Part shown: one piece after another, positions 6,275-64,000 of the stretch
Position numbering within the stretch: position 1 is the stretch's first letter
How the letters are laid out: every line of letters begins with the position of its first letter
Origin: Patescibacteria group bacterium
Lineage (GTDB): Bacteria > Patescibacteriota > Patescibacteriia > CAIXNZ01
Length of the DNA stretch: 64,000 nt
NCBI GenBank assembly: GCA_041651155.1
Contig: JBAZJU010000004.1
Location: forward strand, 39,427-103,426
Reading direction: 5' to 3'
The notes under the pieces: model-generated
The model's input: the letters and a program-made list of their open reading frames with translations, nothing else
What the model was told of the DNA's origin: nothing
Database searches by the model: none
Made by a program: the position numbers and the translations under genes

Positions 6275-6299
6275 ACTTTCTACTTTATAACTTTTTACT
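6274..6299 (+). repeat. Right inverted-repeat arm flanking the four-helix-bundle gene
   Basis: aactttctactttataactttttact contains the reverse complement of the left arm. Confidence 0.5.
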
Positions 6300-6304
6300 A
6301 AATC

Positions 6305-7399: not shown

Positions 7400-7401
7400 T
7401 T

Positions 7402-9007: not shown

Positions 9008-9086
9008 AAATTAATTTTTTAATTTCAAACTTAAATAAAAAATTTAATCCTTAATTATCTAGTTTCTAATTTCTTATTTCAAACCC

Positions 9087-9428: not shown

Positions 9429-9511
9429 AAAAACAAAAATCAAAATCCAAAAAACAAAACAATTTCAAAATTCAAAAGACAAAATAAATTCTAAATTCAA
9501 ATGACAAATGA

Positions 9512-9537
9512 CCTGCCTTCGCCAAGGCTACGGCAGG
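9512..9537 (+). repeat. REP-like element, instance 5 (degenerate): cctgcc-TTCG-ccaagg-CTAC-ggcagg
   Basis: Same TTCG/CTAC internal-loop architecture, about 35 nt upstream of ksgA. A GC-rich cctgcc/ggcagg stem also occurs at 53076-53118. Confidence 0.35.
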
Positions 9538-9570
9538 CAGGCAAATAATGAATATTAAAATTATTTAGGC

Positions 9571-10440: not shown

Positions 10441-10520
10441 AGAAGCTTTTTGTGTTATAATTATATTCAGAGATCTGAGAGAAAGGCCCAGGAAGTTTTA
10501 AAATTTAAAAGATAAATATA

Positions 10521-11375: not shown

Positions 11376-11410
11376 AAATTTTAAATAGAAAAATAAAAAG
11401 CCTTTTGACC

Positions 11411-24331: not shown

Positions 24332-24778
24332 ATGGCTGATGAAGTACAGGAGACGCAATCATTATCGCATTTTTTAGTGCCGCAATTCATTGATATAGAA
24401 TCAAAAATTATCGGGCCAATCACCACCAGGCAATTTCTGATTATGATGGTTGCCGGCATGCTGGATTTTATTTTTTATAAGATATTTTATTTTAATACAT
24501 TTTTAGCCGTGGGGATCATAGTTTCAGGCATTTTTGGCGTAGTTGCTTTTGTAAAAATTAATGGCATGCCTTTTCACTTTTTTTCCCTGAATGTAATTCA
24601 GACATTAAAAAAATCCAAACTAAGGCTGTGGTCAAAAGAAGCAATTACGGCTCTGCCGCCGGTTGAAAAGGCAGAGGTTAAAAAAGAATTTATAGCCAAG
24701 CCTGCTTTGGTCAGTTCCAGGCTGTCCAGCTTATCTTTAGTGGTCAATACAGGCGGCGCTTATCGGGAAGAAGAATAA
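24332..24778 (+). CDS. Small two-TM membrane protein (possible VirB3/PrgI-like T4SS component)
   Basis: 148 aa, two adjacent hydrophobic helices, immediately upstream of the VirB4 pieces. Confidence 0.35.
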   Translation: MADEVQETQSLSHFLVPQFIDIESKIIGPITTRQFLIMMVAGMLDFIFYKIFYFNTFLAVGIIVSGIFGVVAFVKINGMPFHFFSLNVIQTLKKSKLRLWSKEAITALPPVEKAEVKKEFIAKPALVSSRLSSLSLVVNTGGAYREEE

Positions 24779-24794
24779 TTATAATTAACCGCAG

Positions 24795-24850
24795 ATTTTA
24801 TTCACAGATAACACAGATTTGTGAATAGTATCAGTGTAAATCTGTGATAA
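24795..24850 (+). promoter_or_regulatory. Operator-like TCACAGA/TCTGTGA direct and inverted repeat cluster upstream of the virB4 N-terminal ORF
   Basis: attcacagataacacagatttgtgaat, then repeated aatctgtg. The same heptamer family occurs at 58131-58195. Confidence 0.35.
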
Positions 24851-24882
24851 TTAATCTGTGTTTAAGATATCAAATCAAATCT

Positions 24883-25536
24883 ATGGCAAAATCATCAACC
24901 CAAAAATATCTGGATATTGCGGAAATAAGGGAAGATACGGTTATTTTAAAAGACGGCACCTTACGCTCGGTAATTTTGTGTTCCAGCATTAATTTTGCTT
25001 TAAAATCAGAAGAAGAACAAAATGCTTTGATTTTTGGCTACATAGAGTTTTTAAATTCTTTAGATCATCCTATGCAGATTGTTATCCAGTCAAGAAAACT
25101 GGAAGTTGATAATTATCTTAGAAGACTTAGAGAGGCGCAGAGAGTGCAAACTAATGAATTATTAAAAATACAAATAGCCAGCTATATTGATTATATTCAA
25201 GAGCTGATTGAAATTGGTGAAATAATGACCAAGAAGTTTTTTATTATCATCCCTTATAATCCCTTAGGTGATAAAACCAAAAGCTTTTGGTCCAGATTGA
25301 GTGAGGTTTTTAGCGCCAGCCGGTCTATTAAAATAAAAAAGGAAAAGTTTTTGGGATATAAAGAAGCTTTAAACCTGCGCTTGGCTAATGTCCAAACCAA
25401 TCTGAAAGGCATGGGTCTTGATTCAGCGGTTTTGGATACGCAGAGTTTAATAGAACTTTATTATAGCGTGTATAACCCAAAAACAAGCCAAAACCAAAAA
25501 TTACGGGATATCAGCCAGCTTGGGATTGAACGCTAA
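24883..25536 (+). CDS. VirB4/TrbE N-terminal domain encoded as a separate ORF
   Basis: IAEIREDTVILKDGTLRSVI...SEEEQNALIFGYIEFLN matches the VirB4 N-terminal region. Same frame as the downstream ATPase ORF, separated by one TAA. Confidence 0.55.
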   Translation: MAKSSTQKYLDIAEIREDTVILKDGTLRSVILCSSINFALKSEEEQNALIFGYIEFLNSLDHPMQIVIQSRKLEVDNYLRRLREAQRVQTNELLKIQIASYIDYIQELIEIGEIMTKKFFIIIPYNPLGDKTKSFWSRLSEVFSASRSIKIKKEKFLGYKEALNLRLANVQTNLKGMGLDSAVLDTQSLIELYYSVYNPKTSQNQKLRDISQLGIER

Positions 25537-25563
25537 ATTATATTTTTTAAAATAAATTTTTTT

Positions 25564-27504
25564 ATGGCCATACCAATTACACCAGAGACACAAACAGAGC
25601 TGAGACCAGCGCCTGCTCAGCTTTCAAAAAAAGAACAGCAAGCAGCGATTAAAGCCGAAGCAATTACCCTGGAAGAAGAAAGGCTTTTTCGCCAAGGTTT
25701 GATAGAGATTAAAGATTTGATTGCGCCGGCGGCTTTGGAAGTAAAACCGACTTATATGCTTTTGGGTGATCTTTTTGTCAGAACACTTTTTGTTTTAAAT
25801 TATCCGCGTTATATCTCTGTAGGCTGGTTTACGCCGATTATCAACCTGAGCAAAACCTTGGATGTCGCCATGTTTTTTTATCCTGTCAGGTCAGATATTA
25901 TTCTGAAGCAATTAAAAAAGAGAGTGGGAAATCTGGAGGCACAGCTCATGTCGGATATTGAAAAAGGCGCGCCTCGCGATCCAATTTTGGAAACAGCTTT
26001 GCGTGATATTGAAAAATTACGGGACGATCTGACTCAGGGCACTGAAAAATTTTTCCAATTTGCCCTGTATGCCACGCTTTATGCCAATACCTTGGAAGAA
26101 TTAGATGAATTAACAGCAGAAATTGAAGCGATTTTGGGAGGCAAGCTGATTTATAGCAAACGAGTTTTTTACCAATCAGAACAAGGCTTTAATTCAACCT
26201 TGCCTTTGGCTGAGGATGAATTAATGGTCTCATTTAATATGAATACTTCGCCCGTTGCCTCTTCATTCCCCTTTATTTCTTCAGAATTAACTTCAGACGA
26301 CGGAATTTTATACGGCATCAACCGGCATAATAACAGCTTAATACTTTTTGACAGATTTTCTTTGCAGAATGCTAATTTTGTGGTGTTTGCGACTTCGGGC
26401 GCAGGTAAAAGTTATACCATCAAGCTGGAAGTTTTGCGCAGCCTGATGTTGGGCGTTGACATAATAATTATTGATCCTGAAAGAGAATACCTGCATCTGG
26501 CAGAGGCAGTTGGCGGCACTTATGTGGATATTTCTTTAGCCTCAAAAAATAAAATTAATCCATTTGACTTGCCCAGAGCAATTGGCGATGCAAGTACTGA
26601 AGATATTATCCGCAGCGCGGTTATTACCTTGAAAGGCTTATTGCGCTTGATGCTGGGGAATTTGACTGTGGAGGAGGATTCTATTTTAGATCGGGCTTTG
26701 ATTGAAACTTATGCAAGCAAAGATATAACCCCGCAGTCAGATTTGTCTGTCGCCGAAGCGCCAGTGATGCAGGATTTGCAGAGTATTTTGGAAGGCATGG
26801 AGGGTGCAAAAACATTAAGTCTGAGATTAAAAAAATATACTGATGGCACATTTGCGGGCTTGTTTAACCAGCCAACCAATGTGGATATGCATAATCAGCT
26901 TGTGGTTTTTAGCGTCCGAGATTTGGAAGACGAACTCAGGCCGATTGCAATTTATAGCATTATAAATTATATCTGGAATGTGGTGCGTTCAGAAATTAAA
27001 AAAAGGGTATTAGTTATTGATGAAGCCTGGTGGCTGATGACTCATGAGGATTCAGCAAAATTTATTTATGCCTTGGTTAAGCGCTGCCGCAAGTATTATC
27101 TCGGCGTGACTACGATTACGCAGGACGTGAATGACTTTTTAAATAATCCGTATGGCAAGGCCATTGTGACAAACTCAGCTCTGCAGCTGCTTTTAAAACA
27201 ATCGCCTGCAGCTATTGATACGATTCAGGATATATTTTTGTTGACTCAGGGTGAAAAGTATTTGCTGATGGAAGGCGGCGTAGGCGAGGGCATCTTTTTT
27301 GCAGGCAATAAGCATGCGGCCATCAAAGTAGTCGCCTCATACAATGAAGACCAGCTAATAACCAGCGATCCCAAGCAGCTTTTAGAAATAGAAGCGGCTA
27401 AGCGAGAATTTGAAGAACAGACAAAAACTCCAGAGGCAGGATCCAAAAAACAATTAGTCCCGCCCAGAAAAAGAGAAGGCAGTTTTGAGGAGATGACAAT
27501 TTAA
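25564..27504 (+). CDS. virB4: VirB4/TrbE-family type IV secretion ATPase (C-terminal two-thirds)
   Basis: Walker A FATSGAGKSY, Walker B VLVIDEAWWLM, and the conserved VirB4 mid-region (YPRYISVGWFTPIINL). Confidence 0.8.
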   Translation: MAIPITPETQTELRPAPAQLSKKEQQAAIKAEAITLEEERLFRQGLIEIKDLIAPAALEVKPTYMLLGDLFVRTLFVLNYPRYISVGWFTPIINLSKTLDVAMFFYPVRSDIILKQLKKRVGNLEAQLMSDIEKGAPRDPILETALRDIEKLRDDLTQGTEKFFQFALYATLYANTLEELDELTAEIEAILGGKLIYSKRVFYQSEQGFNSTLPLAEDELMVSFNMNTSPVASSFPFISSELTSDDGILYGINRHNNSLILFDRFSLQNANFVVFATSGAGKSYTIKLEVLRSLMLGVDIIIIDPEREYLHLAEAVGGTYVDISLASKNKINPFDLPRAIGDASTEDIIRSAVITLKGLLRLMLGNLTVEEDSILDRALIETYASKDITPQSDLSVAEAPVMQDLQSILEGMEGAKTLSLRLKKYTDGTFAGLFNQPTNVDMHNQLVVFSVRDLEDELRPIAIYSIINYIWNVVRSEIKKRVLVIDEAWWLMTHEDSAKFIYALVKRCRKYYLGVTTITQDVNDFLNNPYGKAIVTNSALQLLLKQSPAAIDTIQDIFLLTQGEKYLLMEGGVGEGIFFAGNKHAAIKVVASYNEDQLITSDPKQLLEIEAAKREFEEQTKTPEAGSKKQLVPPRKREGSFEEMTI

Positions 27505-35435: not shown

Positions 35436-37055
35436 TTAATTTGCTTCGCATTCTGCTTTATCAGCACATTTGCTAGCTCCAAAAAGAGCGCCAATGCAAC
35501 AATTAGATTGGCAAGCATATCTTGATAGAGGCCACGCTCCGCTTTCATAATCATTAACTACCCAGCCAAAGCATGCCGTACCATTCGGGGCTTTTGGCGT
35601 GCAGACTCCTGCCCCTGTGCAGCCATTGCCATCAGAAGCGATGCCAGAAAGAAAGTTATGGCAGGCACAAAATAATCCGGAAACACAATTAAGATTACTT
35701 GTGCAGACGGCACCTTTTTGGCCTTGGAAATCTTTTGGTGCGCATAAGGCTAAAGTGCCGCCAGAACAGTTTCCGCTTAAACATACTGCATTTGTCCCGC
35801 CGCCAAATATTCCTAACAGAGTGTTATATGTTGAGTCACCTAATACAAGTTCACTGCAATTTGCACCATTTTCCCTTTTTGGGAAACAAGAACCTTGTTG
35901 ATTTGCTCCTTTTGAAGCACAATACCAGTTTGCTTCGGGTTGGCATTTTGTGCTTGCATCACAGGTTAAAAGAGGTCCAATCTTTGTACAGCAGATTGGT
36001 TTAGATGTATCCAGGCAAACTCCTCCGTTAGAACTTGCTGTTAGGCCAGCGGCATCACCTTGTCCGCAAGCGCTAGCATAACATTGAGCCAAAGGATCTT
36101 TACCATTACATGTGCTGGCGAATGCTTGTTGAGCTGTGGGCACAGCAGCGCCTTGGCATTGATCAAAACTGACGATTTTACCTTTACAATCAGCCTGAGT
36201 GGAAAAATAAAAGTTTGTGCCGCTTTGGCAGCAATACTGGGCGGTTATTTGTTCAGGGGGTGTTATGGGTTGAAAGGTGATGGTGCCAGGACTAACGATT
36301 TGCAGAACAAAAATAGCAAAAAGTGAAATAAATAAGCCCAGCAAGGCTTTGATAATCGTGCTTTTGGCCTGGCCAATTTTACCGCTATCTCCGCCTGACA
36401 CGATCCAACGAACTCCGCCGATTATAATCATCACAATAGCAACGACGACAACAACCGAAGAGCCAAAAGTAAAAAGAGCTTTAATATAATCGCCAATAGT
36501 GGAGCCGGAAATGGTTAATTCTGATAAGTTGCTCAAAGGTATTTGGAGCTGTAATTTTATCGTTTCTGTCGCAACAGGCGGCGTGTAAGGTTGGATAGTC
36601 GTATCTGCTGCTGTACCTGCTGCGGGGTTTGTTGCTGGGCTAGTTGGCGTCAAGGGCTGGCAGCAATAATTATTTGGCGATTTATTATTGGCGCACCAGC
36701 TATCAAGGGTAAAGCCAGCTGTTCTATCTGGGCAGGTTTTTGATTCGCACTTATTGGGATCTGCGCAAGTTATTCCAGTAGTTTTAGGAACACAGCAATA
36801 TATCTCAAGCCCAGACTGGCAGTCAATACTATCAGCAACTGTTGGGGCAAGATCAGTTGTATCGCAAGCAGGCAAGGATTTGCAAGTACCTGTGGCTCCG
36901 GAAAGATTTTTACAGGTCGCCGCTAATACATTTTGAGGAAATAAGAATAATAAAGCCAGCAGGAATAAATATAAAAATCCCAGAATATTTTTTTTCATGA
37001 GGTTGGTATAAAATTTAATTTTAAAGGGGAGTGTTTTATTGGAGCTTGGCATCAA
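35436..37055 (-). CDS. Secreted cysteine-rich protein with a central two-helix membrane hairpin
   Basis: Signal peptide, two Cys-rich domains of about 30 Cys each, and an internal hydrophobic pair (VVVVVAIVMIIIGG...LLGLFISLFAIFVL). Confidence 0.55.
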   Translation of the reverse strand: MMPSSNKTLPFKIKFYTNLMKKNILGFLYLFLLALLFLFPQNVLAATCKNLSGATGTCKSLPACDTTDLAPTVADSIDCQSGLEIYCCVPKTTGITCADPNKCESKTCPDRTAGFTLDSWCANNKSPNNYCCQPLTPTSPATNPAAGTAADTTIQPYTPPVATETIKLQLQIPLSNLSELTISGSTIGDYIKALFTFGSSVVVVVAIVMIIIGGVRWIVSGGDSGKIGQAKSTIIKALLGLFISLFAIFVLQIVSPGTITFQPITPPEQITAQYCCQSGTNFYFSTQADCKGKIVSFDQCQGAAVPTAQQAFASTCNGKDPLAQCYASACGQGDAAGLTASSNGGVCLDTSKPICCTKIGPLLTCDASTKCQPEANWYCASKGANQQGSCFPKRENGANCSELVLGDSTYNTLLGIFGGGTNAVCLSGNCSGGTLALCAPKDFQGQKGAVCTSNLNCVSGLFCACHNFLSGIASDGNGCTGAGVCTPKAPNGTACFGWVVNDYESGAWPLSRYACQSNCCIGALFGASKCADKAECEAN

Positions 37056-53042: not shown

Positions 53043-53046
53043 TTAA

Positions 53047-55034: not shown

Positions 55035-55508
55035 GTGAAAAAAATTGTGATTTTAACAATCTGTCTGAGCCTTTTGCTGAATAGCGCCTGTCTGAAGAAA
55101 GTCTATCAGAAGCTTGACAGCCTTGATGCCAAGGTAACTCAATTCCACCAAGAAGAAATGAGTGCCATGCAAAAGAACCATCAGGAGGCTATGGCTGCAA
55201 TCTCTGACTTGAATAAGGCCATCAGTAAAAACAGCCGCAAAGTGGAAGAGCTGGGCAAAAAGTTGGATGTGCTCATTCAAAAAGGAGTCATTGTTTCTGG
55301 CCAGATGTATAGCTATGCCACTGTTCACGTGCGCGAAGGCCCTTCTGTGCGATTCAAAAGCGTTGGCTACCTAAAAGGCGGCGAAGTAATCAAAATTGAC
55401 CGCATTGAGAAGAAATGGGCCAGAATTAAAGAAGGGAAATGGCAAGGCAAATGGTGCACGCTACTTTACATGCAATTAAGCGTGGAACCGATTGCTGAAC
55501 CGCAATAA
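55035..55508 (+). CDS. Lipoprotein with coiled-coil region and C-terminal bacterial SH3 (SH3b)-like domain; GC-enriched gene
   Basis: GTG start with AAAGGAGGTG RBS, LLNSAC lipobox, SH3b-like YATVHVREGPS...GYLKGGEVIKI...W segment. GC is visibly higher than the flanks. Confidence 0.45.
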   Translation: MKKIVILTICLSLLLNSACLKKVYQKLDSLDAKVTQFHQEEMSAMQKNHQEAMAAISDLNKAISKNSRKVEELGKKLDVLIQKGVIVSGQMYSYATVHVREGPSVRFKSVGYLKGGEVIKIDRIEKKWARIKEGKWQGKWCTLLYMQLSVEPIAEPQ

Positions 55509-55702
55509 TCAGCATCAAAGGGCGAGGAGAAATCCTTGCCCTTTTTTAATTGGGATACTAATTTACTAATTTGTTACTAATATACGAATATTTCCCATAT
55601 TAATAACCTAATAGCCAAATTACCTAATAACCCAATTATCCCTATTACGTTTGAATTTTTCACTAAATTGTATTAAACTCAAGATAAGCTAAATTTTAAA
55701 AT

Positions 55703-57282: not shown

Positions 57283-57367
57283 CAAACCGTCCACGTGTCA
57301 TCCAGAACGAAGTGAAGGATCCTTAACTTCAAGGATTCCACGCTTTGCTCTGAATGACGGTTTGTCT
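57283..57367. terminator. Convergent bidirectional terminator: 12-bp long-range stem agacaaaccgtc/gacggtttgtct with A/T runs and a nested hairpin
   Basis: Lies between the converging 55703 and 57377 genes. Confidence 0.5.
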
Positions 57368-57376
57368 TTTTTTATT

Positions 57377-58114
57377 TTATTTCAATTTTTCCCAAAAGAA
57401 TTTATGGATCAGGGCCATGGTTTTGGCGATTTCTTTTGATTCAATAATCACGCCCATGAGTTCATTTGCTTTAAATGACATGAAAGCGACTTTATTGCCA
57501 TAGATATTTATTTCAATGGAAAAGGGATAATCTTTTTCCGGAATTAATTTTGTTTCTCGTAATTCCTTAGTATCTCTTTCTTGATATTCTTTGGCTAAAG
57601 GCGCATCAGGCGCAATGACTTTGGCCATTATTTTTTTCTCTATTCTTTGCTGGACATATTGCTGGGTTAGATAATCTATAAGAGGGGATTTATAAGCAGT
57701 AGCCACAGAAACAAAAGCCAATATGTCTTTGCCTTCTTTAATCGTATCAGCATAAACACTTTTAATGCCTTCTTCACCTTCATAAAACCTGATTTTGGGT
57801 TTAACAGGTGAAACCTTGCTTAAGGCCTCTAATTCAGGCAGGATTTGGTTTAAGGTTTTTTGCTTTTGGGCAATTACCTGGGCTAAATGGCTTGGTTCAG
57901 CAGCTAAAAAATAACGTTTTTTGCCTTTGGGTATAACAGTAATAAGATTCTGCTTAATTAAATTTTCTAGTAATTCATAAACAGTGCTTCTTTTAATTTG
58001 GGCTTTTTTAGCAATATTTTGCACTGAAGTTAGCCCCAATTCCAGGGAGGCCAGGTAAATACTGGCTTCTTTTTGGTTTAGGCCAAGTGTTTGGAGTTGG
58101 TCTTGTAATGACAT
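57377..58114 (-). CDS. TrmB-family transcriptional regulator (HTH)
   Basis: N-terminal winged HTH (EASIYLASLELG...TVQNIAKKAQIKRSTVYELL) and TrmB-like C-terminal domain; 245 aa. Confidence 0.7.
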   Translation of the reverse strand: MSLQDQLQTLGLNQKEASIYLASLELGLTSVQNIAKKAQIKRSTVYELLENLIKQNLITVIPKGKKRYFLAAEPSHLAQVIAQKQKTLNQILPELEALSKVSPVKPKIRFYEGEEGIKSVYADTIKEGKDILAFVSVATAYKSPLIDYLTQQYVQQRIEKKIMAKVIAPDAPLAKEYQERDTKELRETKLIPEKDYPFSIEINIYGNKVAFMSFKANELMGVIIESKEIAKTMALIHKFFWEKLK

Positions 58115-58130
58115 ATGAATACTTAAACCA

Positions 58131-58195
58131 CAGAATTTAGCTCACAGAATACACAGAAAATTCAGTGTTTTTCTGTGAATTTATTCAGTGGTTTA
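58131..58195. promoter_or_regulatory. Operator-like CACAGAA/TTCTGTG repeat cluster in the trmB-like promoter region
   Basis: ccacagaatttagctcacagaatacacagaaaattcagtgtttttctgtgaattt. Confidence 0.4.
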
Positions 58196-58269
58196 TTATT
58201 TCCTTAGTTTTGTCGCCTAAAAAGACAATATTATAATCTAAAGTAATCATAGCATATCATGGCAAAAAT

Positions 58270-58339
58270 GTCAAGATTTCCGCCGACATTTGAAATTATT
58301 GTCGGAAGTATTGACAAGAATAATAATAATTGCTATAAT
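58270..58339 (+). promoter_or_regulatory. Consensus sigma70 promoter (TTGACA 58311-58316, 17 bp, TATAAT 58334-58339) overlapped by nested palindromes
   Basis: Nested pairs tgtcaag...cttgaca and ccgacatt...attgtcgg surround the -35 element. Drives ORF 58423. Confidence 0.5.
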
Positions 58340-58422
58340 TTAGTGTTTAAGAATGAATATTTAAAACAGAAACCAAATCCGCTATCAACGGGTATAAAAC
58401 CAATCTTAAAGGAGTACAAGAA

Positions 58423-58731
58423 ATGGATTTAACGCGCATTAAAGAAGAGTCAAGAAAATTTGCACTAGGTATAGTTACAGATTATCTCAAAGAAGTAAGG
58501 GTCTCCTTCATAAACGAAAAGGATGTTGTGTATTTGGTGGATGTGCAGGAAATAAAGAATTTGTTTGATGAGGTGGGCATAACTGTCCGAGAAAAAGAAT
58601 TGGCTGATATGTTGAATGAATTAATGTTCGGCCAAAAAAGGGTCGCAAACTTCAGAGTGGAGCATCTATTTCCGGAGTTTTGCAAGGACGGAACCCATTT
58701 CAGGGTAATAAAGATTTCGGAATTGGAATAA
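58423..58731 (+). CDS. Cassette-region ORF 1: small soluble hypothetical protein
   Basis: 102 aa; GGAG RBS. Confidence 0.4.
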   Translation: MDLTRIKEESRKFALGIVTDYLKEVRVSFINEKDVVYLVDVQEIKNLFDEVGITVREKELADMLNELMFGQKRVANFRVEHLFPEFCKDGTHFRVIKISELE

Positions 58732-58780
58732 ACATTCCTGAAATTTCGGGCAAGTTAATTATAAAAGTTAGCTTGCCCAT

Positions 58781-58822
58781 CGTCTTTAGCCCAGAAAATT
58801 TTTTCGTGGGTTAAAAAACGGG
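58781..58822 (+). repeat. Cassette box1 copy a (cgtctttagcccagaaaattttttcgtgggttaaaaaacgg), preceded by hairpin gggcaag...cttgccc
   Basis: Conserved ~41-bp box, then conserved aatgttctttacaaaagaaaggag RBS box, then an ATG. Confidence 0.7.
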
Positions 58823-58852
58823 AATGTTCTTTACAAAAGAAAGGAGAAAAAA

Positions 58853-59140
58853 ATGAAAAAGAAGATACATTGGGCAATTTGGCTGGTTATAATTCTGATT
58901 GTGCTTTTTGTGGTTTTGGGCAACTGTTGGTTAGCAATATTATGCGGCTATAAATTAACCGCAGATATTATTGCTATATGGAAACATCCTGAAATAATTA
59001 CGATCTGCAAAATCCTTATTCTTCTGGCGGAGGTCTGCATCATTCCGATGTGCATACTTATGACAATTTGTTTGTGCAAATCTGCCAATAAGAAAAAATT
59101 GTTAGAAGAATTTGGCGAATGGGAGGATATATCGGAATAG
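58853..59140 (+). CDS. Cassette ORF 2: small two-TM membrane protein
   Basis: 95 aa; box1 plus RBS box upstream. Confidence 0.5.
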   Translation: MKKKIHWAIWLVIILIVLFVVLGNCWLAILCGYKLTADIIAIWKHPEIITICKILILLAEVCIIPMCILMTICLCKSANKKKLLEEFGEWEDISE

Positions 59141-59197
59141 AGATTTGCAATCGCTTGTGATTTATCGGGCAGAAATTGTCCTGCAATTTTTGCCCAT

Positions 59198-59238
59198 CGT
59201 CTTTAGCCCGGGAAATTTTTTCATGGGTTAAAATACGG
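59198..59238 (+). repeat. Cassette box1 copy b
   Basis: cgtctttagcccgggaaattttttcatgggttaaaatacgg, preceded by hairpin gggcag...ctgccc-like at 59167-59195. Confidence 0.7.
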
Positions 59239-59287
59239 ACTTTAAAACAAATCAAAACTCCGCTGAAAGCGGGAAGGGAGAGAAAAA

Positions 59288-59593
59288 ATGCCCGAATTGG
59301 TAGAAGTAATATCCATAATCGTATCAGATGAAGAAGTCTACATTACAACAAAAGATGGGGAAACAACTGCGGAAAGGCAGACAACACTTGAAGAAATAGA
59401 TATAACAAATATCTTCATGTCTGATCCTGCAGCAGTTTTGTATGACACTCAAAGAAATGCAATAAGGCTGGATCATAGTTATTGGCAGGCTAAATTTTTC
59501 AGCGAAATTAACCGTGATATCTGCCGGCAAATCGCATATTTAGCCTTAATGAAGGTAATGCAGCATTCTTTCTTGAAAGCTCACAATAGGTAA
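59288..59593 (+). CDS. Cassette ORF 3: small soluble hypothetical protein
   Basis: 101 aa; GGGAGAG RBS. Confidence 0.45.
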   Translation: MPELVEVISIIVSDEEVYITTKDGETTAERQTTLEEIDITNIFMSDPAAVLYDTQRNAIRLDHSYWQAKFFSEINRDICRQIAYLALMKVMQHSFLKAHNR

Positions 59594-59660
59594 AAAAGTT
59601 AAATCCAATTCGGGCGATTTCGCTGCACCAGGCTTCGGCCTAGACAACGGAATCGCCCAT

Positions 59661-59701
59661 CGTCTTTAGCTCAGGAAATTTTTTCGTGGGTTAAAAAACG
59701 G
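59661..59701 (+). repeat. Cassette box1 copy c
   Basis: cgtctttagctcaggaaattttttcgtgggttaaaaaacgg, preceded by gggcgat...atcgccc-type hairpin. Confidence 0.7.
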
Positions 59702-59747
59702 ATTGAACTTTAAAACTAAAGGCACGAAGTGCCAAAAGGAGGAAGAA

Positions 59748-59933
59748 ATGAAAGATAAAATTATCACTCTATTTTGGCGGACAATTATTTGTCTGGGCGC
59801 GGTACGGGCAATATGTCCCATTGTTATAGGGGACTTTAACTTTGATGATTTTTTTTGGGGTTTTTTCTTTTTTAGTTGGGCTGTATGGATGTACGACATT
59901 CATAAGTGGGGCAAAAAATTAACTAAAAATTAA
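59748..59933 (+). CDS. Cassette ORF 4: 61-aa two-TM membrane peptide
   Basis: ATG at 59748 behind a GGAGG RBS; the track ORF starts upstream at 59703. Confidence 0.4.
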   Translation: MKDKIITLFWRTIICLGAVRAICPIVIGDFNFDDFFWGFFFFSWAVWMYDIHKWGKKLTKN

Positions 59934-59970
59934 CCCAAAATTATCTTTCGGGCGATCCCAAATCGCCCCT

Positions 59971-60011
59971 CGTCTTTAGCCCAGGAAATTTTTTCGTGGG
60001 TTAAAAAACGG
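59971..60011 (+). repeat. Cassette box1 copy d
   Basis: cgtctttagcccaggaaattttttcgtgggttaaaaaacgg, preceded by hairpin gggcgat-ccca-aatcgccc. Confidence 0.7.
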
Positions 60012-60042
60012 AATTGTTCTTTAAAAACAAAAGGAGGAAAGA

Positions 60043-60456
60043 ATGAAAATCAACAAAAATAGCTGGCATTATCGTTTGGTTTTAAAACAGGTAAAAAACG
60101 AAATCTGCCCTTTCAATGAAAGCTATTATATGCCTGACACCAGTTGCGCATATTTTGCCAAATTGATTAAAGTGGCTTTTCTTAATTTTTGCAAACTGGT
60201 TTTGGGCCTTTTTGTTCTGGGAATGAGCTATGGATTTTCCTGGGCCGTGATTGAAGATCCTTTACCGTTAATCTGCGTTCTCGTCTCTGTATCTTTGGCC
60301 ATCGGACTCACGATTGGATTACGTTTTCTTAGTGAGATGATTAGTGGCCTGTATTGGCCGATCAAACTAAGGTTAAAGCAATTCTGTCTGTATCGTCTGT
60401 ATTGGCCGATCAAACTAAGGTTAAAGAAATTCTGTGCCAAGATTGAATATACCTAA
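60043..60456 (+). CDS. Cassette ORF 5: membrane protein with N-terminus MKINKNSWHYRLV (paralog of ORF 62853) and an internal 16-aa tandem repeat
   Basis: 137 aa; a 48-bp tandem duplication at 60349-60435 encodes LYWPIKLRLKQFC twice. Confidence 0.5.
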   Translation: MKINKNSWHYRLVLKQVKNEICPFNESYYMPDTSCAYFAKLIKVAFLNFCKLVLGLFVLGMSYGFSWAVIEDPLPLICVLVSVSLAIGLTIGLRFLSEMISGLYWPIKLRLKQFCLYRLYWPIKLRLKKFCAKIEYT

Positions 60457-60492
60457 AAACGGAAATGTTCTTTACAAAAGAAAGGAGAGAAA

Positions 60493-60993
60493 ATGAAAAG
60501 TCTAAATGAAATGACTGGGGTAGAGGCTATTGAAGCTTTTATTGAAGGCGCTAGAAAATTTACGCTTCAAGATATTGTTTCAATTTTCGGGGCTAACGAC
60601 TTTCAAATTCTTAGCCGCAAAGCGCGAATAAGCATTATGGAATTTTTCAGTGAACAATCTTTTCTTTTTAAGCCCATGGATAGGGCGAACTACGAAGAAG
60701 AATATCTTCAAAAATTCTTTTCATTCATTGGCGTGGACTCTACCTTGCCAATAAACGAAGTAGAGATTATTGAAAAGTCAATGAAAAATGGCAACGGTAA
60801 TGCGGTGCGTAATATATTTAGCATTGTCATCCGTGCCAACCCTTTAGTCCTCGGTGATTTAAGCAAAAAAGCCAAGGAACAAATGCTTTACCATTTGCAC
60901 GATGGAAGAATTAATGCAGAAGAGGAAGTTCTTAACAAAGACAATTTCCGCTCCCCCGAATATATCGCAGGGCTAAAAGCCTTGCTTTCCTGA
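60493..60993 (+). CDS. Cassette ORF 6: 166-aa soluble hypothetical protein
   Basis: Preceded by a degenerate box (only taaaaacgg plus the RBS box retained, 60454-60492). Confidence 0.45.
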   Translation: MKSLNEMTGVEAIEAFIEGARKFTLQDIVSIFGANDFQILSRKARISIMEFFSEQSFLFKPMDRANYEEEYLQKFFSFIGVDSTLPINEVEIIEKSMKNGNGNAVRNIFSIVIRANPLVLGDLSKKAKEQMLYHLHDGRINAEEEVLNKDNFRSPEYIAGLKALLS

Positions 60994-61045
60994 TAAAACT
61001 TAAATTTTCGGTGAACCAGATTCTCTTGGGAACTGGTTCACCTTT

Positions 61046-61085
61046 CGTCTTTAGCCCAGGAAATTTTTCGTGGGTTGAAATACGG
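61046..61085 (+). repeat. Cassette box1 copy f
   Basis: cgtctttagcccaggaaatttttcgtgggttgaaatacgg, preceded by hairpin ggtgaaccag...ctggttcacc plus ttt. Confidence 0.7.
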
Positions 61086-61115
61086 AAATGTTCTTTTAAA
61101 AAGAAAGGAGAAAAA

Positions 61116-61469
61116 ATGTCTGCATTGTATGTTCTGATTATGGTTTTAGTGGCAGTAGTATTATTTCTTGTCTTAATGGGAGGTGGAGATGATGATCGAA
61201 CAAGAAGACAAAAATTTGTCCGAGACAATCCGGATCTCTGCAACATTATCACCATTGAGCCAGACAAGGAATATCTGGTGATAATCAAATCTGACGTACC
61301 AATATGGGTATTTGATGATTATGCTGTCCTAAAACAGGGTTTGGCAAGTTTAGTAGCAACTCATCCTCGCTATTATTTAACCAAAATTTGGACGACTAAC
61401 GGATCAGATAACCCAGACGAGATGATGATTAGAATGGGATACCGAGTTTTTGTTCTCAATAATACGTAA
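61116..61469 (+). CDS. Cassette ORF 7: 117-aa protein with N-terminal TM helix
   Basis: ATG at 61116 behind AAAGGAG; the track ORF starts upstream at 61011. Confidence 0.45.
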   Translation: MSALYVLIMVLVAVVLFLVLMGGGDDDRTRRQKFVRDNPDLCNIITIEPDKEYLVIIKSDVPIWVFDDYAVLKQGLASLVATHPRYYLTKIWTTNGSDNPDEMMIRMGYRVFVLNNT

Positions 61470-61517
61470 GAAAAAAAATAATCTTATCGGGCGATTCCGC
61501 TGCGCGGAATCGCCCAT

Positions 61518-61557
61518 CGTCTTTAGCCCGGGACAATGTGTCATGGGTTAAAAAACG
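61518..61557 (+). repeat. Cassette box1 copy g (variant carrying the embedded palindrome gacaatgtgtc at 61532-61542)
   Basis: cgtctttagcccgggacaatgtgtcatgggttaaaaaacgg, preceded by perfect hairpin gggcgattccg-ctgcg-cggaatcgccc. A ~75-nt hairpin-containing leader follows before the RBS. Confidence 0.7.
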
Positions 61558-61662
61558 GAAAAATGTTCTTTAAAACAAAAGTCCGCCTTTGCATCCATCC
61601 CCCGTAGAAGTAGTCTGCTAATGAGGACGAGCAAGGCTATGGCGGACAAAGGGAGGAAGAAA

Positions 61663-62109
61663 ATGAAAATTTTGTTGTTCGGTCTTGTCGTCTTAGGATA
61701 TTCAGGCGCATTAATTTGGTTAGCCCGGAGATGTAAAAGAGAGGGTCTCCCTAAAACAGTGGCTCATTCACTTCTGATTGCTACCCCCGTTTCCCTTTTT
61801 GTAGTCATGCCGCTTTTTGCCTGGAATGAAAGTCTAACACTTATTGAATATTCCGGCTGGCTTGCTTTAGGAATTATGTTGCCAATAACAGCATTGATTG
61901 CTTACGACAGAATTAACGTGGGAGATGAATCTGAGGGAATATTGGAAGAAATGGTAGCGATTAAAGATATATTGTCGCTTGTTTTTTCCAATATTTTTCT
62001 AGTTATTGCCGTTGCCATGTTTTTACTTCCCATGGCTCTGTCTCATCTGATTTTTACGCTGATATCCAAAAAAATGAGAGGCGAGTTATCTGAAGATGAT
62101 GGATTCTAA
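61663..62109 (+). CDS. Cassette ORF 8: ~148-aa polytopic membrane protein
   Basis: ATG at 61663 behind a GGGAGG RBS; four predicted TM helices. Confidence 0.45.
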   Translation: MKILLFGLVVLGYSGALIWLARRCKREGLPKTVAHSLLIATPVSLFVVMPLFAWNESLTLIEYSGWLALGIMLPITALIAYDRINVGDESEGILEEMVAIKDILSLVFSNIFLVIAVAMFLLPMALSHLIFTLISKKMRGELSEDDGF

Positions 62110-62186
62110 TTTTGAAAACCTAGCCTGAACCCTCTGTGTTTCATGCTATGCCGCAAATCCAACATGGTTTGCGGCTTCAACTCGAG

Positions 62187-62205
62187 CATAGGACAGTGTC
62201 ATATG
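62187..62205. promoter_or_regulatory. Palindromic operator-like site cataggaca-g-tgtcatatg upstream of ORF 62247
   Basis: 8/9-matching inverted repeat. The conserved tggagattg...ccttaaaaa box follows. A near-identical site lies at 62754-62776. Confidence 0.45.
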
Positions 62206-62246
62206 TTGGAGATTGAAAAAAGTACCTTAAAAAGGAGAATTAAATT

Positions 62247-62741
62247 ATGCCTATAGTAACTGGAGAATTCAGAGATCATTTTACAGTAGAAGTAGAGGAG
62301 ATGCCTAATCAATATGGTAAATACACTCTTTACGTGGATTTAGGTGAAGAAGTAAAAATTTTTATCCGCTATAGTAAAAGCGGCGAAAAATACCCTTGCA
62401 AAGAATTAAAAATGGAAATCAGCGGAATTACTAGAAGAGGATGCTGGAGAAGAATAACTAAGCCTAAAGAAAAATTGGAATCCTGGAAAAATAAACAAGG
62501 GTTAGGTCATTGTGTGGTATTTCATGATTGGCAAAGACCAGATATTCATCGGTTATTTGTTGATCTGGGAACTGAAGTAATAATTGAAATCAGGCGCTAT
62601 ACCGGTAAACTACTCTGGGGACATTGGCCGGAGCTAAAAAGCAATACTGAAATCGGCACAATAACAGCTAATGGGACTTGGAAAAGAAACATAAAACCAA
62701 AGGAGGAATCAATTTCGGTCAATCCACCTTTGGCGGATTGA
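62247..62741 (+). CDS. Cassette ORF 9: 164-aa soluble protein with two tandem ~60-aa internal repeats
   Basis: YTLYVDLGEEVKIFIRY... and HRLFVDLGTEVIIEIRRY... are paralogous halves. Confidence 0.45.
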   Translation: MPIVTGEFRDHFTVEVEEMPNQYGKYTLYVDLGEEVKIFIRYSKSGEKYPCKELKMEISGITRRGCWRRITKPKEKLESWKNKQGLGHCVVFHDWQRPDIHRLFVDLGTEVIIEIRRYTGKLLWGHWPELKSNTEIGTITANGTWKRNIKPKEESISVNPPLAD

Positions 62742-62753
62742 CCCTCAACTTGA

Positions 62754-62776
62754 GCATATGACAATGTGTCGTATGC
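62754..62776. promoter_or_regulatory. Palindromic operator-like site gcatatgaca-atg-tgtcgtatgc upstream of ORF 62853
   Basis: 9/10-matching inverted repeat sharing the GACA-n-TGTC core. Confidence 0.45.
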
Positions 62777-62852
62777 TGGAGATTGGGAAATGAACCTTAA
62801 AAAAGAAGGGTCGCTTTCGCATAAAGCTATGGCGACCAAAAGGAGGAAGAAA

Positions 62853-63221
62853 ATGAGAATCAACAAAAATAGCTGGCATTATCGTTTGGTAGAAAAAACG
62901 ATTGAAGATCACAGGTTTCATGTGGGGTGGAACCACAAATTACCTGAAAAAAAATGCAGATATTTTTTAATCTTACTGCATGGTATTTTTTCTTACGCAG
63001 TTGGGCCTGCATTAATAATGATAGGTCTTTGGCTCTTTATTATTCACCGTAAGGAATGGGTTTACATTTTACTAACATTTGCAATCTTTGCATTTGTTAG
63101 TACTGTATTTACTCTATTTGGTTACGGCTTGCATAAGCTGTATAAGTCACATGAAGAGGACTTCAAAAAATGGTTCAAAAAATGCAAAGACAAAATTTGC
63201 ACTGATGTTGAGTATTTCTAA
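62853..63221 (+). CDS. Cassette ORF 10: membrane protein with N-terminus MRINKNSWHYRLV (paralog of ORF 60043)
   Basis: ATG at 62853 behind a GGAGG RBS; two or three TM helices. Confidence 0.45.
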   Translation: MRINKNSWHYRLVEKTIEDHRFHVGWNHKLPEKKCRYFLILLHGIFSYAVGPALIMIGLWLFIIHRKEWVYILLTFAIFAFVSTVFTLFGYGLHKLYKSHEEDFKKWFKKCKDKICTDVEYF

Positions 63222-63263
63222 AAAATTTTCGGTGAGCCAGATCTAATAATCTGGTTCACCTTT

Positions 63264-63304
63264 CGTCTTTAGCCCGGGAAATTTTTTCATGGGTTAAAAA
63301 ACGG
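63264..63304 (+). repeat. Cassette box1 copy h
   Basis: cgtctttagcccgggaaattttttcatgggttaaaaaacgg, preceded by hairpin ggtgagccagat...atctggttcacc plus ttt. The REP-like element is inserted between box1 and the RBS box. Confidence 0.7.
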
Positions 63305-63311
63305 TCAATGC

Positions 63312-63346
63312 TAACCGTAGTCCCGCCAACGCCGGGACGTAGGTTG
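63312..63346 (+). repeat. REP-like structured palindromic element, instance 4 (taacc-GTAG-tcccgcc-aac-gccggga-CGTA-ggttgg) within a cassette leader
   Basis: Same architecture as the other instances. Confidence 0.45.
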
Positions 63347-63377
63347 GAAATGTTCTTTACAAAGAAAGGAGAAAAGA

Positions 63378-64000
63378 ATGGGAAAAAAAGAAATGCTTGA
63401 ACTTTTTCACAAACAAGAAAGTGTCCATGTTTCCAGGGATGATGCCAGGTTAAGTGATTTAGAAGCTGTGCTTGGTGTTAATGTTTTTGATTTAGCTATT
63501 ACAGATTTAGCAGAAATCAAAGACAGGCAAGAGGTTTTTGTTTACTTGCTAAATAATCCACAGATTTTTGATCGGCTATTTGTCGCTTGGACTGAAATTG
63601 GCAGTTGTACTGTCCCGACAGACAGCGGCCAGCAGTTTCTATCTTACTATGAAAACCTGCGCTTTAAAAATACCGATTTTTGGCTCTGGACGGAAGGGGT
63701 GCTCAAGAATCTTACAGGTGAATTGCCAAAACGGATTGAACAAGCACTCGAAGTTATTAAGCAGGAAAAAGATGATTATTGCCAGGAAGAACTAGATCTG
63801 GCTGAAGCTATGGTCGCGGATTTAACCAGGTCAATAGTCGTTGAAGGTGTTTTGGATTTGCAGGTTAAGCGCCCAGGCCAATTTTTTCAGACGTTAGACT
63901 GGTCAGAATTGGTTTGTTGTGGTGTGGATTTGTATATTTCGCCTCAAATCCCAGAGCAATTCCAGGCGCCTGAATGGCTGGGCTCAGCCGGCCGTTATGT
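63378..64000 (+). CDS. Cassette ORF 11 (3'-truncated by window end): soluble hypothetical protein
   Basis: Open frame from the ATG at 63378 to the window end (over 207 codons, no stop), behind box1 and the RBS box. Missing from the supplied track because it has no stop in the window. Confidence 0.45.
   Translation, partial: MGKKEMLELFHKQESVHVSRDDARLSDLEAVLGVNVFDLAITDLAEIKDRQEVFVYLLNNPQIFDRLFVAWTEIGSCTVPTDSGQQFLSYYENLRFKNTDFWLWTEGVLKNLTGELPKRIEQALEVIKQEKDDYCQEELDLAEAMVADLTRSIVVEGVLDLQVKRPGQFFQTLDWSELVCCGVDLYISPQIPEQFQAPEWLGSAGRY

Follow-up and report, generated by a model that had tools for sequence, protein, structure and literature searches.

How does a long series of small and mostly unrelated genes come to stand behind intergenic modules that are almost identical to one another, and what do such modules do? 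The question is raised by the end of a 64,000-nucleotide stretch of DNA from a Patescibacteria group bacterium (GenBank assembly GCA_041651155.1, contig JBAZJU010000004.1, positions 39,427 to 103,426 of the forward strand), which at its full length is called the window in what follows, and in which ten complete open reading frames (ORFs) of 61-166 amino acids, all on the forward strand at 58423-63221, are nearly all preceded by modules of this kind. An earlier note on this DNA had described the region as a tandem array of cassettes, each consisting of a hairpin, a 41-bp box (box1), a box at the ribosome-binding site (the RBS box) and a small ORF; it had left undecided whether box1 is a promoter, an RNA element or a recombination site, and had compared the array to integron-type cassette arrays and to polymorphic toxin-immunity or orphan-module arrays. 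The description of a cassette-like array in which near-identical modules accompany unrelated coding content is borne out here, the modules being restricted to the array and the content varying in relatives. Among the three readings of box1, the RNA element is favoured over the other two by compensatory changes and by a bias towards G-U pairs.

The interpretation put forward in this work, to which we assign about an even chance of being right, is that the region would be a single operon regulated by a TrmB-family protein, with RNA modules and a candidate Nus-factor site between the cassettes, and that the cassettes would be shuffled by homologous recombination. The order of the parts between cassettes is a first hairpin (H1), a second hairpin (H2, which corresponds to box1), a boxA-like box and a Shine-Dalgarno (SD) sequence, and these parts would act on the transcript and not on the DNA.

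The window was compared with loci from relatives, numbered L001-L021, among which L010 is from a Buchananbacteria metagenome-assembled genome (MAG), L011 is from a Parcubacteria MAG with a TrmB that is 72% identical, L012 is from Saccharibacteria, and L009 is on a contig that ends 410 bp from trmB. The nearest named relatives of the regulator that adjoins the array belong to Candidatus Buchananbacteria and Parcubacteria MAGs. When metagenome contigs were scanned for the box1 pattern, seven stretches were returned, and those that keep their flanks represent the same locus (His-methyltransferase, TrmB, promoter and array), with flanks about 82% identical to the window. Box1 was absent from the GTDB species representatives and the viral contigs searched, and no comparable array was found among the Saccharibacteria TrmB relatives (L012).

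A hairpin of conserved shape

Copies of box1 begin at 58781, 59198, 59661, 59971, 61046, 61518 and 63264, all on the forward strand; five of them have 0-1 mismatches in 41 nt, for which shuffled sequences give an expectation of 0, and a 13-nt core, TCGTCTTTAGCYC, occurs seven times in the 64 kb, each time in the array. The count of seven copies made previously is therefore right, and the identity of over 90% that was attributed to them is slightly overstated, since two copies diverge more: the one at 61046 has a 1-nt deletion and two substitutions (69% over a gap-free span of 68 nt), and the one at 61518 keeps the outer arms and has an apical part of the form GACA...TGTC (76% over a gap-free span of the same length).

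Every copy adopts one fold, the variants with other stem sequences included: an outer stem of 3 bp is separated by a bulge from a stem of 9-10 bp, above which come a 1x1 internal loop and a further 3-4 bp closed by a short loop. When 31 copies collected by hand from the window and related loci were aligned with MAFFT, 88.8% of the cells were paired and 8 of the 17 pairs were compensated, compared with 32-48% pairing in slid controls. An alignment of 45 distinct copies gave 87.6% paired cells, with compensation in 9 of the 17 pairs and 75 compensated cells, values reached by 0 of 500 shuffles and compared with 32-46% pairing in slid controls; because these 45 copies were aligned by fitting to the covariance model, this second result leans towards structure, and the 31-copy alignment is the independent one. 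Over eight pair positions of the core stem, the sense strand carries 51 G-U pairs and 3 A-C pairs (an earlier hand tally of core pairs had given 40 and 2). Because G-U pairs are tolerated on the coding strand alone, which would be unexpected for a protein site on double-stranded DNA or for a bottom-strand attC site, H2 is read as a sense-strand RNA, and a conserved-shape RNA element is the favoured description of it.

The distribution of H2 is equally restricted. Matches to the covariance model number 9 in the window (all at 58781-63304), 15 in L013 and 15 in L017, and all of them lie in arrays in the sense orientation. The check proposed earlier, whether box1 stands beside housekeeping genes, found it confined to the array in the 64 kb and, with the strict pattern, to one stretch only of a relative's 332-kb contig. 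With copies in one locus and one orientation in the window and the contigs scanned, H2 does not show the dispersal of repetitive extragenic palindromic (REP) sequences, bacterial interspersed mosaic elements (BIMEs) or miniature inverted-repeat transposable elements (MITEs). Nor does the region have the form of a CRISPR (clustered regularly interspaced short palindromic repeats) array, the repeats being spaced 310-1746 nt apart with ORFs as the intervals; the lone Rfam match to a CRISPR direct repeat scores 22 bits, compared with a threshold of 41, and is on the opposite strand. No Rfam family reached its gathering threshold for the array RNAs, and only noise was returned up to E=10. Box1 as a promoter was rejected, because the promoter scan found no -35/-10 in or beside any copy on the forward strand, in agreement with the earlier note; the best hexamers that can be picked by eye have a spacing of 20-21 nt, compared with the 16-18 nt of a sigma-70 promoter, and neither -11A nor -7T is present.

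Some H2 copies contain a nested insertion of about 28 nt that forms a hairpin of its own, CCCAGCACC-loop-GGTGCTGGG (L003 3299-3367, reverse strand; L017 6134-6202 and 9010-9078). It is found on either side of the apical stem, 5' or 3', with apparent short target duplications, and has the look of a very small insertion element or of a duplication made by templating.

A boxA-like box beside the Shine-Dalgarno sequence

The RBS box has the form (A)ATGTTCTTTAMAA, followed by 4-6 nt and then AAGGAG, and is found in four copies within 3 mismatches and in a 1-nt-shorter copy at about 63349, as would be expected of the conserved box that had been reported in front of the ORFs. It does adjoin the SD, but it is more than a ribosome-binding site, because it holds a boxA-like candidate site for NusB/S10. 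The word GTTCTTTAAAA fits the boxA consensus GYTCTTTAANA, which Baniulyte et al. (2017, PMC5725501) derived and looked for at distances of up to 50 nt from start codons, and it is identical to the boxA of the L. pneumophila Lens CRISPR array, a functional site whose addition to a synthetic array raised the transcript about 10-fold (Ellis et al. 2021, PMC7862264). Antitermination by boxA, which counters Rho in long CRISPR arrays, has been documented and has a wide phylogenetic distribution (Stringer et al. 2020, PMC7665894).

Exact copies of GTTCTTTAAAA are present in the 64-kb window at 60016 and 61565 only, both in the array, and six boxA matches (58826, 60016, 60467, 61090, 61565 and 63352) occupy the equivalent place in array units. 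Among 72 distinct cassette untranslated regions (UTRs) from nine loci, the commonest words other than the SD are GTTCTTT (29) and GTTCTTTA (25), and at least 9 of the 11 boxA positions are matched in 43 UTRs, when 0.4 would be expected. Positions G1, C4, T6 and T7 vary least, a weak result because the 41 units used were preselected at 9/11 or better. Leaders of arrays also hold boxA-like boxes, as judged by reading them, most clearly in L021, L013, L011 and L010.

In the syntenic array of L011, the second hairpin (H2', CCUAAAUUGAGUCUUUUUC...GAUUCAAAAGUAGG) is long and unrelated in sequence to H2, and GTTCTTTAAAAC is retained in front of the SD, so that the order H1, H2', boxA, SD is held. Because L011 keeps the box and not the H2 sequence, the box behaves as if it were read by a universal partner, while the hairpin is lineage-specific. 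In view of its sequence identity, position and conservation across lineages, the best-supported reading of the GTTCTTTAAAA box is a boxA-type Nus-factor site. Another candidate explanation of the box, that it pairs (UUCUUU) with AAAGGA and thereby sequesters the SD, was dropped, since variants of the box are not compensated in the SD.

The upstream hairpins

A strong GC-rich hairpin stands 2-3 nt upstream of the boxes, and fold and terminator scans confirm that hairpins precede box1 as had been described. Their designation as terminators does not hold, because H1 lacks the U-runs seen at the true terminators of this genome. H1 passes a loose terminator filter, but of the two parts of an intrinsic terminator, a hairpin and a U-run immediately after it, the hairpin is present and the U-run is absent, the tails of H1 being AUCGUCUUUAG or UUCAACUCGAG. 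Long U-runs are found at the window terminators at 53045, 54943 and 55517, and at the terminators at the ends of the L013 and L011 arrays. Because H1 differs from the genome's terminators in this way, we infer that it serves as a weak stop or a protector of 3' ends within a polycistronic transcript, and partial termination at H1 is possible. The suggestion that H1, like H2, could be recognized as a sense-strand RNA by its wobble bias was rejected, the bias being absent.

The terminator at 55517-55544, which follows the ORF at 55035-55508, has the same stem (GGGCGAGGAGAAATCCTTGCCC) as the terminator at the end of the L013 array (about 14890-14915), which suggests that the gene beside it has moved relative to the array between lineages.

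Promoter and regulator

The gene divergent from the array (57377-58114, reverse strand) encodes a winged helix-turn-helix regulator of the TrmB family (PF01978, E=4.6e-13), and the position of trmB is syntenic in L013, L016/L017, L021, L003, L010 and L011. On the side of the array, the promoter scan identified TTGACA-17-TATAAT with a TG extension (12/12) at 58311-58339 on the forward strand; this is the only canonical sigma-70 promoter on that strand within 57300-64000, and it is kept in relatives. The trmB promoter, TTGACA-17-TATGAT (11/12), lies at 58246-58274 on the reverse strand. Direct reading shows an operator-like palindrome, CCGACA-n11-TGTCGG (58283-58305), between the two divergent -35 boxes, which is kept in five lineages and takes the form CGACA-n5-TGTCG in L011. 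It also shows a candidate second operator, the palindrome TGTCGC-n7-GACA (58211-58227), near the -10 of the trmB promoter, which is kept in the window, L013, L017, L021 and L003.

The array had been taken to begin at 58740; its true start is the promoter at 58311 and the ORF at 58423, and it does reach the end of the window. Under the proposed model, this single consensus sigma-70 promoter would drive the whole region from 58311 to the window end, and the TrmB-family protein would probably control it through the CGACA/TGTCG palindromes.

Variation of the array between relatives

Cassette families are common to the relatives, and their content and order differ at the syntenic locus. The order in the window is F4, F10, F11, x, F0, F1, F12, F5, F13, F0, K, while that in L013 is F3, F6, F18, F19, F1, F0, F10, F0, F3, F6 and onward, and that in L017 is F3, F1 and onward; L003, L004, L005, L008 and L021 differ again. 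The comparison of relatives for gain and loss of cassettes, which had been proposed as a check, thus reveals differing sets and orders and not an identical arrangement. The complete array of L013 contains about 20 ORFs in 7.7 kb, from TrmB to a canonical terminator and dapB, and that of L017 is longer than 7 kb (H2 copies at 6134-12370), with small co-oriented ORFs continuing to the end of the contig. The variability is unlikely to be an assembly artefact, since assemblies made independently from different samples agree: L016 and L017 share 99.8% identity over 12 kb, and L001 does not differ from the window.

For the family F10 (ORF B of the window), the synonymous divergence (dS) between the window and L013 is 0.15, compared with 0.94 for the flanking methyltransferase of the same pair of genomes, and because of this difference F10 appears to have been recently exchanged or converted. 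The ratio of nonsynonymous to synonymous divergence (dN/dS) is 0.22-0.83 in cassettes and 0.17 in the flank. Within the modules, H1 types, halves of H2, the optional hairpins called H3 and boxA are combined in a fine mosaic that includes hybrid copies, and the truncated unit at 60457 has, on direct reading, the form that the loss of DNA between two TAAAAA(A) repeats would leave. The mosaic and the microhomology deletion fit homologous or microhomology-mediated recombination among repeats of 70-100 nt, and not the use of a single crossover site.

A dedicated recombinase was not seen. No integrase domain was found in about 43 scanned ORFs of the window or in the genes that flank the complete L013 array, and no toxin family was matched, so that the earlier note was correct in seeing neither type of gene. 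The array shares with integrons its co-oriented cassettes, which have no promoters of their own, stand behind one promoter and vary in content between strains. The comparison with an integron-type array is nevertheless not supported, on the absence of an integrase from the genes scanned, on the absence of attC cores and on the sense-strand RNA bias of H2. No pairs of RYYYAAC...GTTRRRY cores were found in the 10 intergenic modules on either strand; H2, at 41 nt, is shorter than the attC range of 57-141 nt; and the divergent gene, which in an integron would be IntI, is the TrmB-family regulator.

Proposed model and alternative explanations

In the proposed model, transcription from the array promoter would encounter H1, H2, boxA and SD in turn before most cassettes. 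H1, which is predicted to be very stable and is a poor intrinsic terminator, would probably protect 3' ends or act as a partial stop, and H2, 2-3 nt after it, would be either a boxB-like partner of boxA or a site of processing or protein binding. The boxA box (GTTCTTTAAAA; in its RNA form GUUCUUUAAAA, the proposed target of a cognate NusB-S10 pair) would load NusB/S10 and other Nus factors onto RNA polymerase. The repetition of H2 and boxA before most cassettes (43 of the 72 distinct UTRs) would re-arm the polymerase, which could then pass the H1 hairpins and the small, poorly translated genes that invite Rho, as in rRNA operons and CRISPR arrays. A boxA so near the SD may additionally, or instead, damp translation as it does at E. 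coli suhB, and the module as a whole may delimit segments of the mRNA. At the level of the DNA, the near-identical modules of 70-100 nt would give rise to homologous recombination and to small microhomology deletions, by which cassettes would be duplicated, deleted, reordered and swapped between strains without a dedicated recombinase.

A bolder extension, which we advance only tentatively and regard as doubtful, is that the locus is a recombinase-independent functional analogue of an integron in the ultra-small bacteria of the candidate phyla radiation (CPR): a platform under the control of a regulator, in which any small gene flanked by H1, H2, boxA and SD could be swapped, duplicated or reordered through homologous recombination and be expressed all the same, since each module would re-arm the polymerase and mark off an mRNA segment of its own, and in which H2 is the recognition hairpin of a co-evolving, lineage-specific factor that binds or cuts RNA. 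Such a factor would explain why H2 differs wholly between lineages while boxA does not.

Several observations weigh against the proposed model. The boxA box is a short AT-rich word, and with one mismatch allowed its overall count is at the level of chance (23 observed, 24 expected), so that the argument for it rests on position and conservation. About 40% of the units have a degraded boxA or none, including both units of the window with H2 of type B (the apical GACA-n-TGTC form). In the sole studied case of a boxA close to an SD, that of suhB, the outcome is repression, through translational repression and Rho termination (PMC5725501). Neither the window nor the seven larger loci scanned contain rRNA genes, and the boxA of the host's own rRNA operons thus gives no comparison; nusB and rho were likewise not found among the window ORFs scanned. 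The absence of a strand bias in the wobble pairs of H1 leaves an RNA-level role of H1 without independent support, and weak internal promoters may exist inside the array. The boxB of E. coli rrn operons is dispensable, so that calling H2 boxB-like leaves its shape and the conservation of its lower stem unexplained. H2 is in fact far better conserved than a dispensable boxB would require, and it may have a separate partner; that its structure is so strongly kept, in a sequence particular to the lineage, suggests a dedicated one.

An alternative explanation, unlikely in our estimation, is based on RNA processing and stability alone. It also assumes one transcript, but in it H2 would be a cleavage site for an RNase specific to double strands or to hairpins (RNase III-like, as between the early genes of phage T7), H1 would guard the 3' ends, and GTTCTTTAAAA would be an A/U-rich enhancer of translation that resembles boxA by coincidence. 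In its favour, H2 is a sense-strand hairpin with about 17 bp, in which the internal loop and the lower stem are conserved and the apical loop varies freely. The constant distance of 2-3 nt between H1 and H2 would mean that cleavage leaves the upstream fragment ending in H1, and about 40% of the units lack a good boxA. Classical RNase III sites, however, span about two helical turns and H2 is shorter, the boxA consensus is matched exactly in many copies, and boxA is kept where H2 is wholly replaced, which points to a universally conserved partner. It is quite unlikely that the array is instead a chain of independent units, in which H1 would terminate each transcript and the box1/H2 DNA would be a non-canonical promoter or operator, perhaps bound by TrmB. 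The success of H1 in the loose terminator filter, the palindromic character of H2 as DNA and the resemblance of the apical GACA-n-TGTC of type B to the CGACA/TGTCG half-sites by the main promoter would suit such a chain; but there is no -35/-10 in or around box1, compensatory changes and a 51:3 excess of G-U over A-C pairs are unexpected of promoters, the half-sites are 3-5 nt apart in H2 and 11 nt apart in the operator, H1 is without the U-runs of this genome's real terminators, and insertions of 20-70 nt (H3) would keep shifting the geometry of a promoter.

That H2, or H1 and H2 together, is an analogue of attC which is recombined as folded single-stranded DNA by a recombinase encoded elsewhere, as in clusters of attC sites lacking integron-integrases (CALINs), appears very unlikely to us. 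The unidirectional cassettes without promoters of their own behind one promoter, the structured repeats that are uniform within a genome and divergent between lineages, and the variation in content and order, with one cassette far closer between genomes than the flank, are what such a system would produce. They must be set against the lack of an integrase in the 58 kb upstream of the array and on either side of the L013 array, the lack of RYYYAAC/GTTRRRY cores and the length of H2 (41 nt), which is below the attC size range, and a wobble bias that favours the sense strand, as in an RNA. Furthermore, H1, halves of H2, H3 and boxA form a mosaic with hybrids in place of one fixed crossover point, the sole clear deletion has microhomology at its ends, and the conserved box near the SD has no integron counterpart. 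The view that H1 and H2 are selfish or neutral repeats, REP/BIME- or MITE-like palindromes in an ordinary operon, we consider highly improbable. The elements are palindromic and intergenic, hairpins of 28 nt are inserted within a few copies of H2, and one type of H3 is flanked by GTAG like REPs; yet they are confined to one locus in 64 kb and to one stretch of a 332-kb contig, they have a fixed orientation and order relative to the SD in every unit, L011 keeps the architecture with a different sequence, and compensatory evolution implies selection on the fold.

Relation to known systems

The closest parallels to the proposed model are the boxA antitermination systems of rRNA operons and CRISPR arrays (PMC7665894, PMC7862264), with which the locus shares an 11-nt signal in the sense transcript of a long, repeat-punctuated array behind a single leader promoter. 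As in rrn leaders, where boxB precedes boxA, a hairpin stands just upstream of the box; the interval from H2 to boxA is 4-10 nt in most units, and rrn boxB has no defining sequence. The locus differs from these systems in that the signal is repeated before most units and is not placed once in a leader, that the units code for proteins, that the hairpin is strongly conserved and covarying, and that the host is a CPR bacterium in which the signal is predicted from sequence. The boxA of suhB (PMC5725501) is similar in its placement within 50 nt of a start codon and close to the SD (6 nt in E. coli suhB, 4-6 nt in the array), but suhB is one autoregulated gene, whereas here the box is found with dozens of unrelated cassettes of what would be one operon.

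Vibrio superintegrons, with their Vibrio cholerae repeat (VCR) attC sites, and CALINs resemble the array in having unidirectional small ORFan cassettes, one promoter, structured repeats and content that varies between strains. The array is unlike them in having no IntI, TrmB in the divergent place, no attC cores and repeats outside the attC size; its repeats have the character of sense-strand RNA, conserved expression signals stand downstream of them, and its rearrangement appears to be of a homologous or microhomology type. The RNase III sites of T7 early genes and the REP/BIME stabilizers of E. coli are intercistronic hairpins within one transcript that may define or protect segments of mRNA, as the array hairpins may. 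The T7 sites, which RNase III is known to cut, have a greater length, and REPs are dispersed over the genome, while the array has two hairpins in a fixed order with boxA and is specific to one locus. The put sites of phage HK022 (two adjacent stem-loops) and the eps-associated RNA (EAR) of Bacillus are cis-acting antitermination RNAs of long operons, and the stem-loops of the array are similarly close, at 1-3 nt; there is, however, no similarity to them in sequence or fold (no Rfam match), and the size and sequence of H1 vary, unlike those of a fold that binds RNA polymerase specifically.

Patescibacteria have tiny genomes for which, to our knowledge, almost no gene-regulation signals have been defined by experiment. 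The locus offers a clear sigma-70 promoter with a candidate operator and an RNA element that is supported by covariation and absent from Rfam, and it seems to provide the first example of a boxA-type signal that recurs before most genes of a protein-coding array. If the proposed model is correct, Nus/boxA control extends beyond rRNA and CRISPR arrays to arrays of accessory genes, and a streamlined bacterium can do without an integrase in keeping a repertoire of small membrane and ORFan proteins that evolves fast and is specific to the strain. The hairpin, boxA and SD of the locus also form a natural set of parts for the study of transcription-translation coupling in CPR bacteria.

Anatomy of the individual units

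All features of the array described here are on the forward strand. The array opens with ORF A (58423-58731, 102 aa, soluble, family F4), a frameshifted copy of which is present in L003. The module of unit 1 comprises H1 at 58748-58778 (hairpin and terminator scans), H2 at 58781-58821 (60.9 bits with the covariance model) and a boxA-like GTTCTTTACAA with one mismatch at 58826-58836, 5 nt before the SD, and it precedes ORF B (58853-59140, 95 aa, two transmembrane (TM) segments, F10). In unit 2, H1 (59167-59195, from the same scans) and H2 (59198-59238) are followed by a small H3 (59260-59272) and ORF C (59288-59593, 101 aa, F11). In unit 3, H1 is at 59612-59658, H2 (59661-59701) has a C-to-U change that keeps a U-G pair, and an H3 (59721-59733) precedes ORF D (59748-59933, 61 aa, 1 TM). 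Unit 4 has H1 at 59950-59968, the consensus copy of box1 as its H2 (59971-60011, 66.2 bits) and an exact GTTCTTTAAAA at 60016-60026, in front of ORF E (60043-60456, 137 aa, 2 TM, F0). The unit at 60457-60492, before ORF F (60493-60993, 166 aa, soluble, all-helical, F1), is truncated by the deletion of H1 and most of H2, and it keeps AAACGG, a boxA-like GTTCTTTACAA (60467-60477) and the SD; it is the one degenerate box of the earlier note, and AAACGG and the RBS box are indeed all that is left there.

The H1 of unit 6 (61010-61042) is of the GGTGAACCAG type; it is followed by an H2 with a loop 1 nt shorter (61046-61085), a boxA-like box with one mismatch (61090-61100) and ORF G (61116-61469, 117 aa, 1 TM, F12). 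Unit 7 comprises H1 (61489-61515), a hybrid H2 (61518-61558, 60.5 bits) that joins the lower stem of box1 to a GACA..UGUC apical stem, an exact GTTCTTTAAAA (61565-61575) and a long H3 hairpin (61581-61647), and precedes ORF H (61663-62109, 148 aa, 4 TM, F5). The H2 of unit 8 (62178-62216, 48.4 bits), between H1 (62150-62175) and a degraded boxA-like GTACCTTAAAA (62222-62232), is of type B, with the same fold and another stem sequence, and stands before ORF I (62247-62741, 164 aa, soluble, with an internal repeat, F13). The H2 of unit 9 (62746-62786, 49.4 bits) is also of type B; a short hairpin (62720-62740) that overlaps the end of ORF I precedes it, and an H3 of the kind called H3a (62808-62837) follows it before ORF J (62853-63221, 122 aa, 2 TM, F0). 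The boxes of units 8 and 9 had been set apart as different ones: their stems do differ, and they belong to the same hairpin family, with scores of 48-49 bits and E values of about 1e-9. Unit 10 comprises an H1 of the GGTGAGCCAG type (63231-63260), H2 (63264-63304), an H3 of a second kind, H3b (63311-63345), and a boxA-like GTTCTTTACAA with one mismatch (63352-63362).

These modules of the same type lead to ORF K (63378-64000), which runs past the end of the window and gives the N-terminal part of a MutS-domain-V ATPase with a length of at least 617 aa.

Cassette proteins

The description of at least ten small, mostly unrelated ORFs, many of them coding for membrane proteins, agrees with the ten complete ORFs of 61-166 aa, 6 of which have predicted TM segments; over four arrays the figure is 24 of 42. 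The N-terminus that two of the ORFs had been said to share is found in ORF E (MKINKNSWHYRLV) and ORF J (MRINKNSWHYRLV), both of family F0. The last ORF had been counted as a small cassette and is not one, as its size of at least 617 aa and its MutS-domain-V assignment show. ORF K is 50% identical to a protein of L010 (L010 1-1851, reverse strand) that matches PF00488 with 38.5 bits, and a homologue search with ORF K returned one fragment. The L010 homologue is also downstream of TrmB and of three small TM ORFs, and the family of ORF K may be an older, conserved member of the locus.

The cassette ORFs have no matches in Pfam or PADLOC, and no toxin, immunity or defence family was found among them. 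Two of the array proteins are recorded in NCBI as hypothetical proteins (WC460_04085 and WC460_04090). Family F1 has 6 cluster representatives among 1.84 billion proteins; its AlphaFold2 (AF2) model is all-helical, with a predicted local distance difference test (pLDDT) value of 76, and has no significant fold match in the PDB. The cassette proteins are ORFans. The comparison with polymorphic toxin-immunity or orphan-module arrays finds no counterpart here, since Pfam and PADLOC are blank, there is no large toxin gene in the L013 array, and F1 is without a PDB match. The cassettes of L011 are of greater size, and an AAA_28 ATPase and a receiver-like domain are found among them. Small membrane proteins are enriched and dN/dS is raised, which suggests roles of the cassettes at the cell surface, in interaction with a host or in interaction with phages.

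In L013, F3 (a small protein with 3 TM) is always followed directly by F6 (basic and soluble), with an SD only and no hairpins between them, and the pair occurs 2-3 times in that array (7160-7882, 10578-11295 and about 13453-13905). In the L006/L017 lineage, F1 takes the place of F6 after F3 (L017 5267-5560). Both F3-F6 and F3-F1 may represent functional units of two genes. Near the 3' end of ORF E there is an in-frame tandem duplication of 48 bp (60349-60435), the copies of which are 97% identical (LYWPIKLRLKQFC and LYWPIKLRLKKFC).

Optional hairpins and genomic surroundings

The H3 insertions between H2 and the SD are optional and 20-70 nt long. H3a, which lies directly upstream of the SD, has covarying stems and a conserved loop, YNC-GCAUAAAGC-UWYG, and is found at 62808-62837, in an expanded form at 61581-61647, at about 8590-8620 of L013 and in the leaders of L009 and L010. 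It also occurs in more distant relatives that have no H1 or H2, and is possibly a separate small RNA motif. H3b (CCAACCGWAG - hairpin - ACGTAGGTTGG) is present at 63311-63345 and also in L004, L005 and L008, before ORFs that are unrelated across genomes, and its GTAG flanks recall REP elements.

The window is cellular DNA with a GC content of about 37%, and its housekeeping genes include those for NrdD, a release factor (RF), KsgA, RadA, RecG, PheS/PheT, RseP and tRNAs. An ORF at 5891-6274 matches PF05635 (23S rRNA intervening-sequence protein), though the window holds no rRNA gene. Genes resembling those of type IV secretion systems (T4SS) lie at 24332-27504 and 35436-37055 and include a PrgI family member, a VirB4/TraG-like P-loop ATPase and a T4SS pilin; such genes are commonly reported for Patescibacteria. 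Two very large ORFs are located at 11405-19756 (2783 aa) and 19765-22863 (1032 aa).

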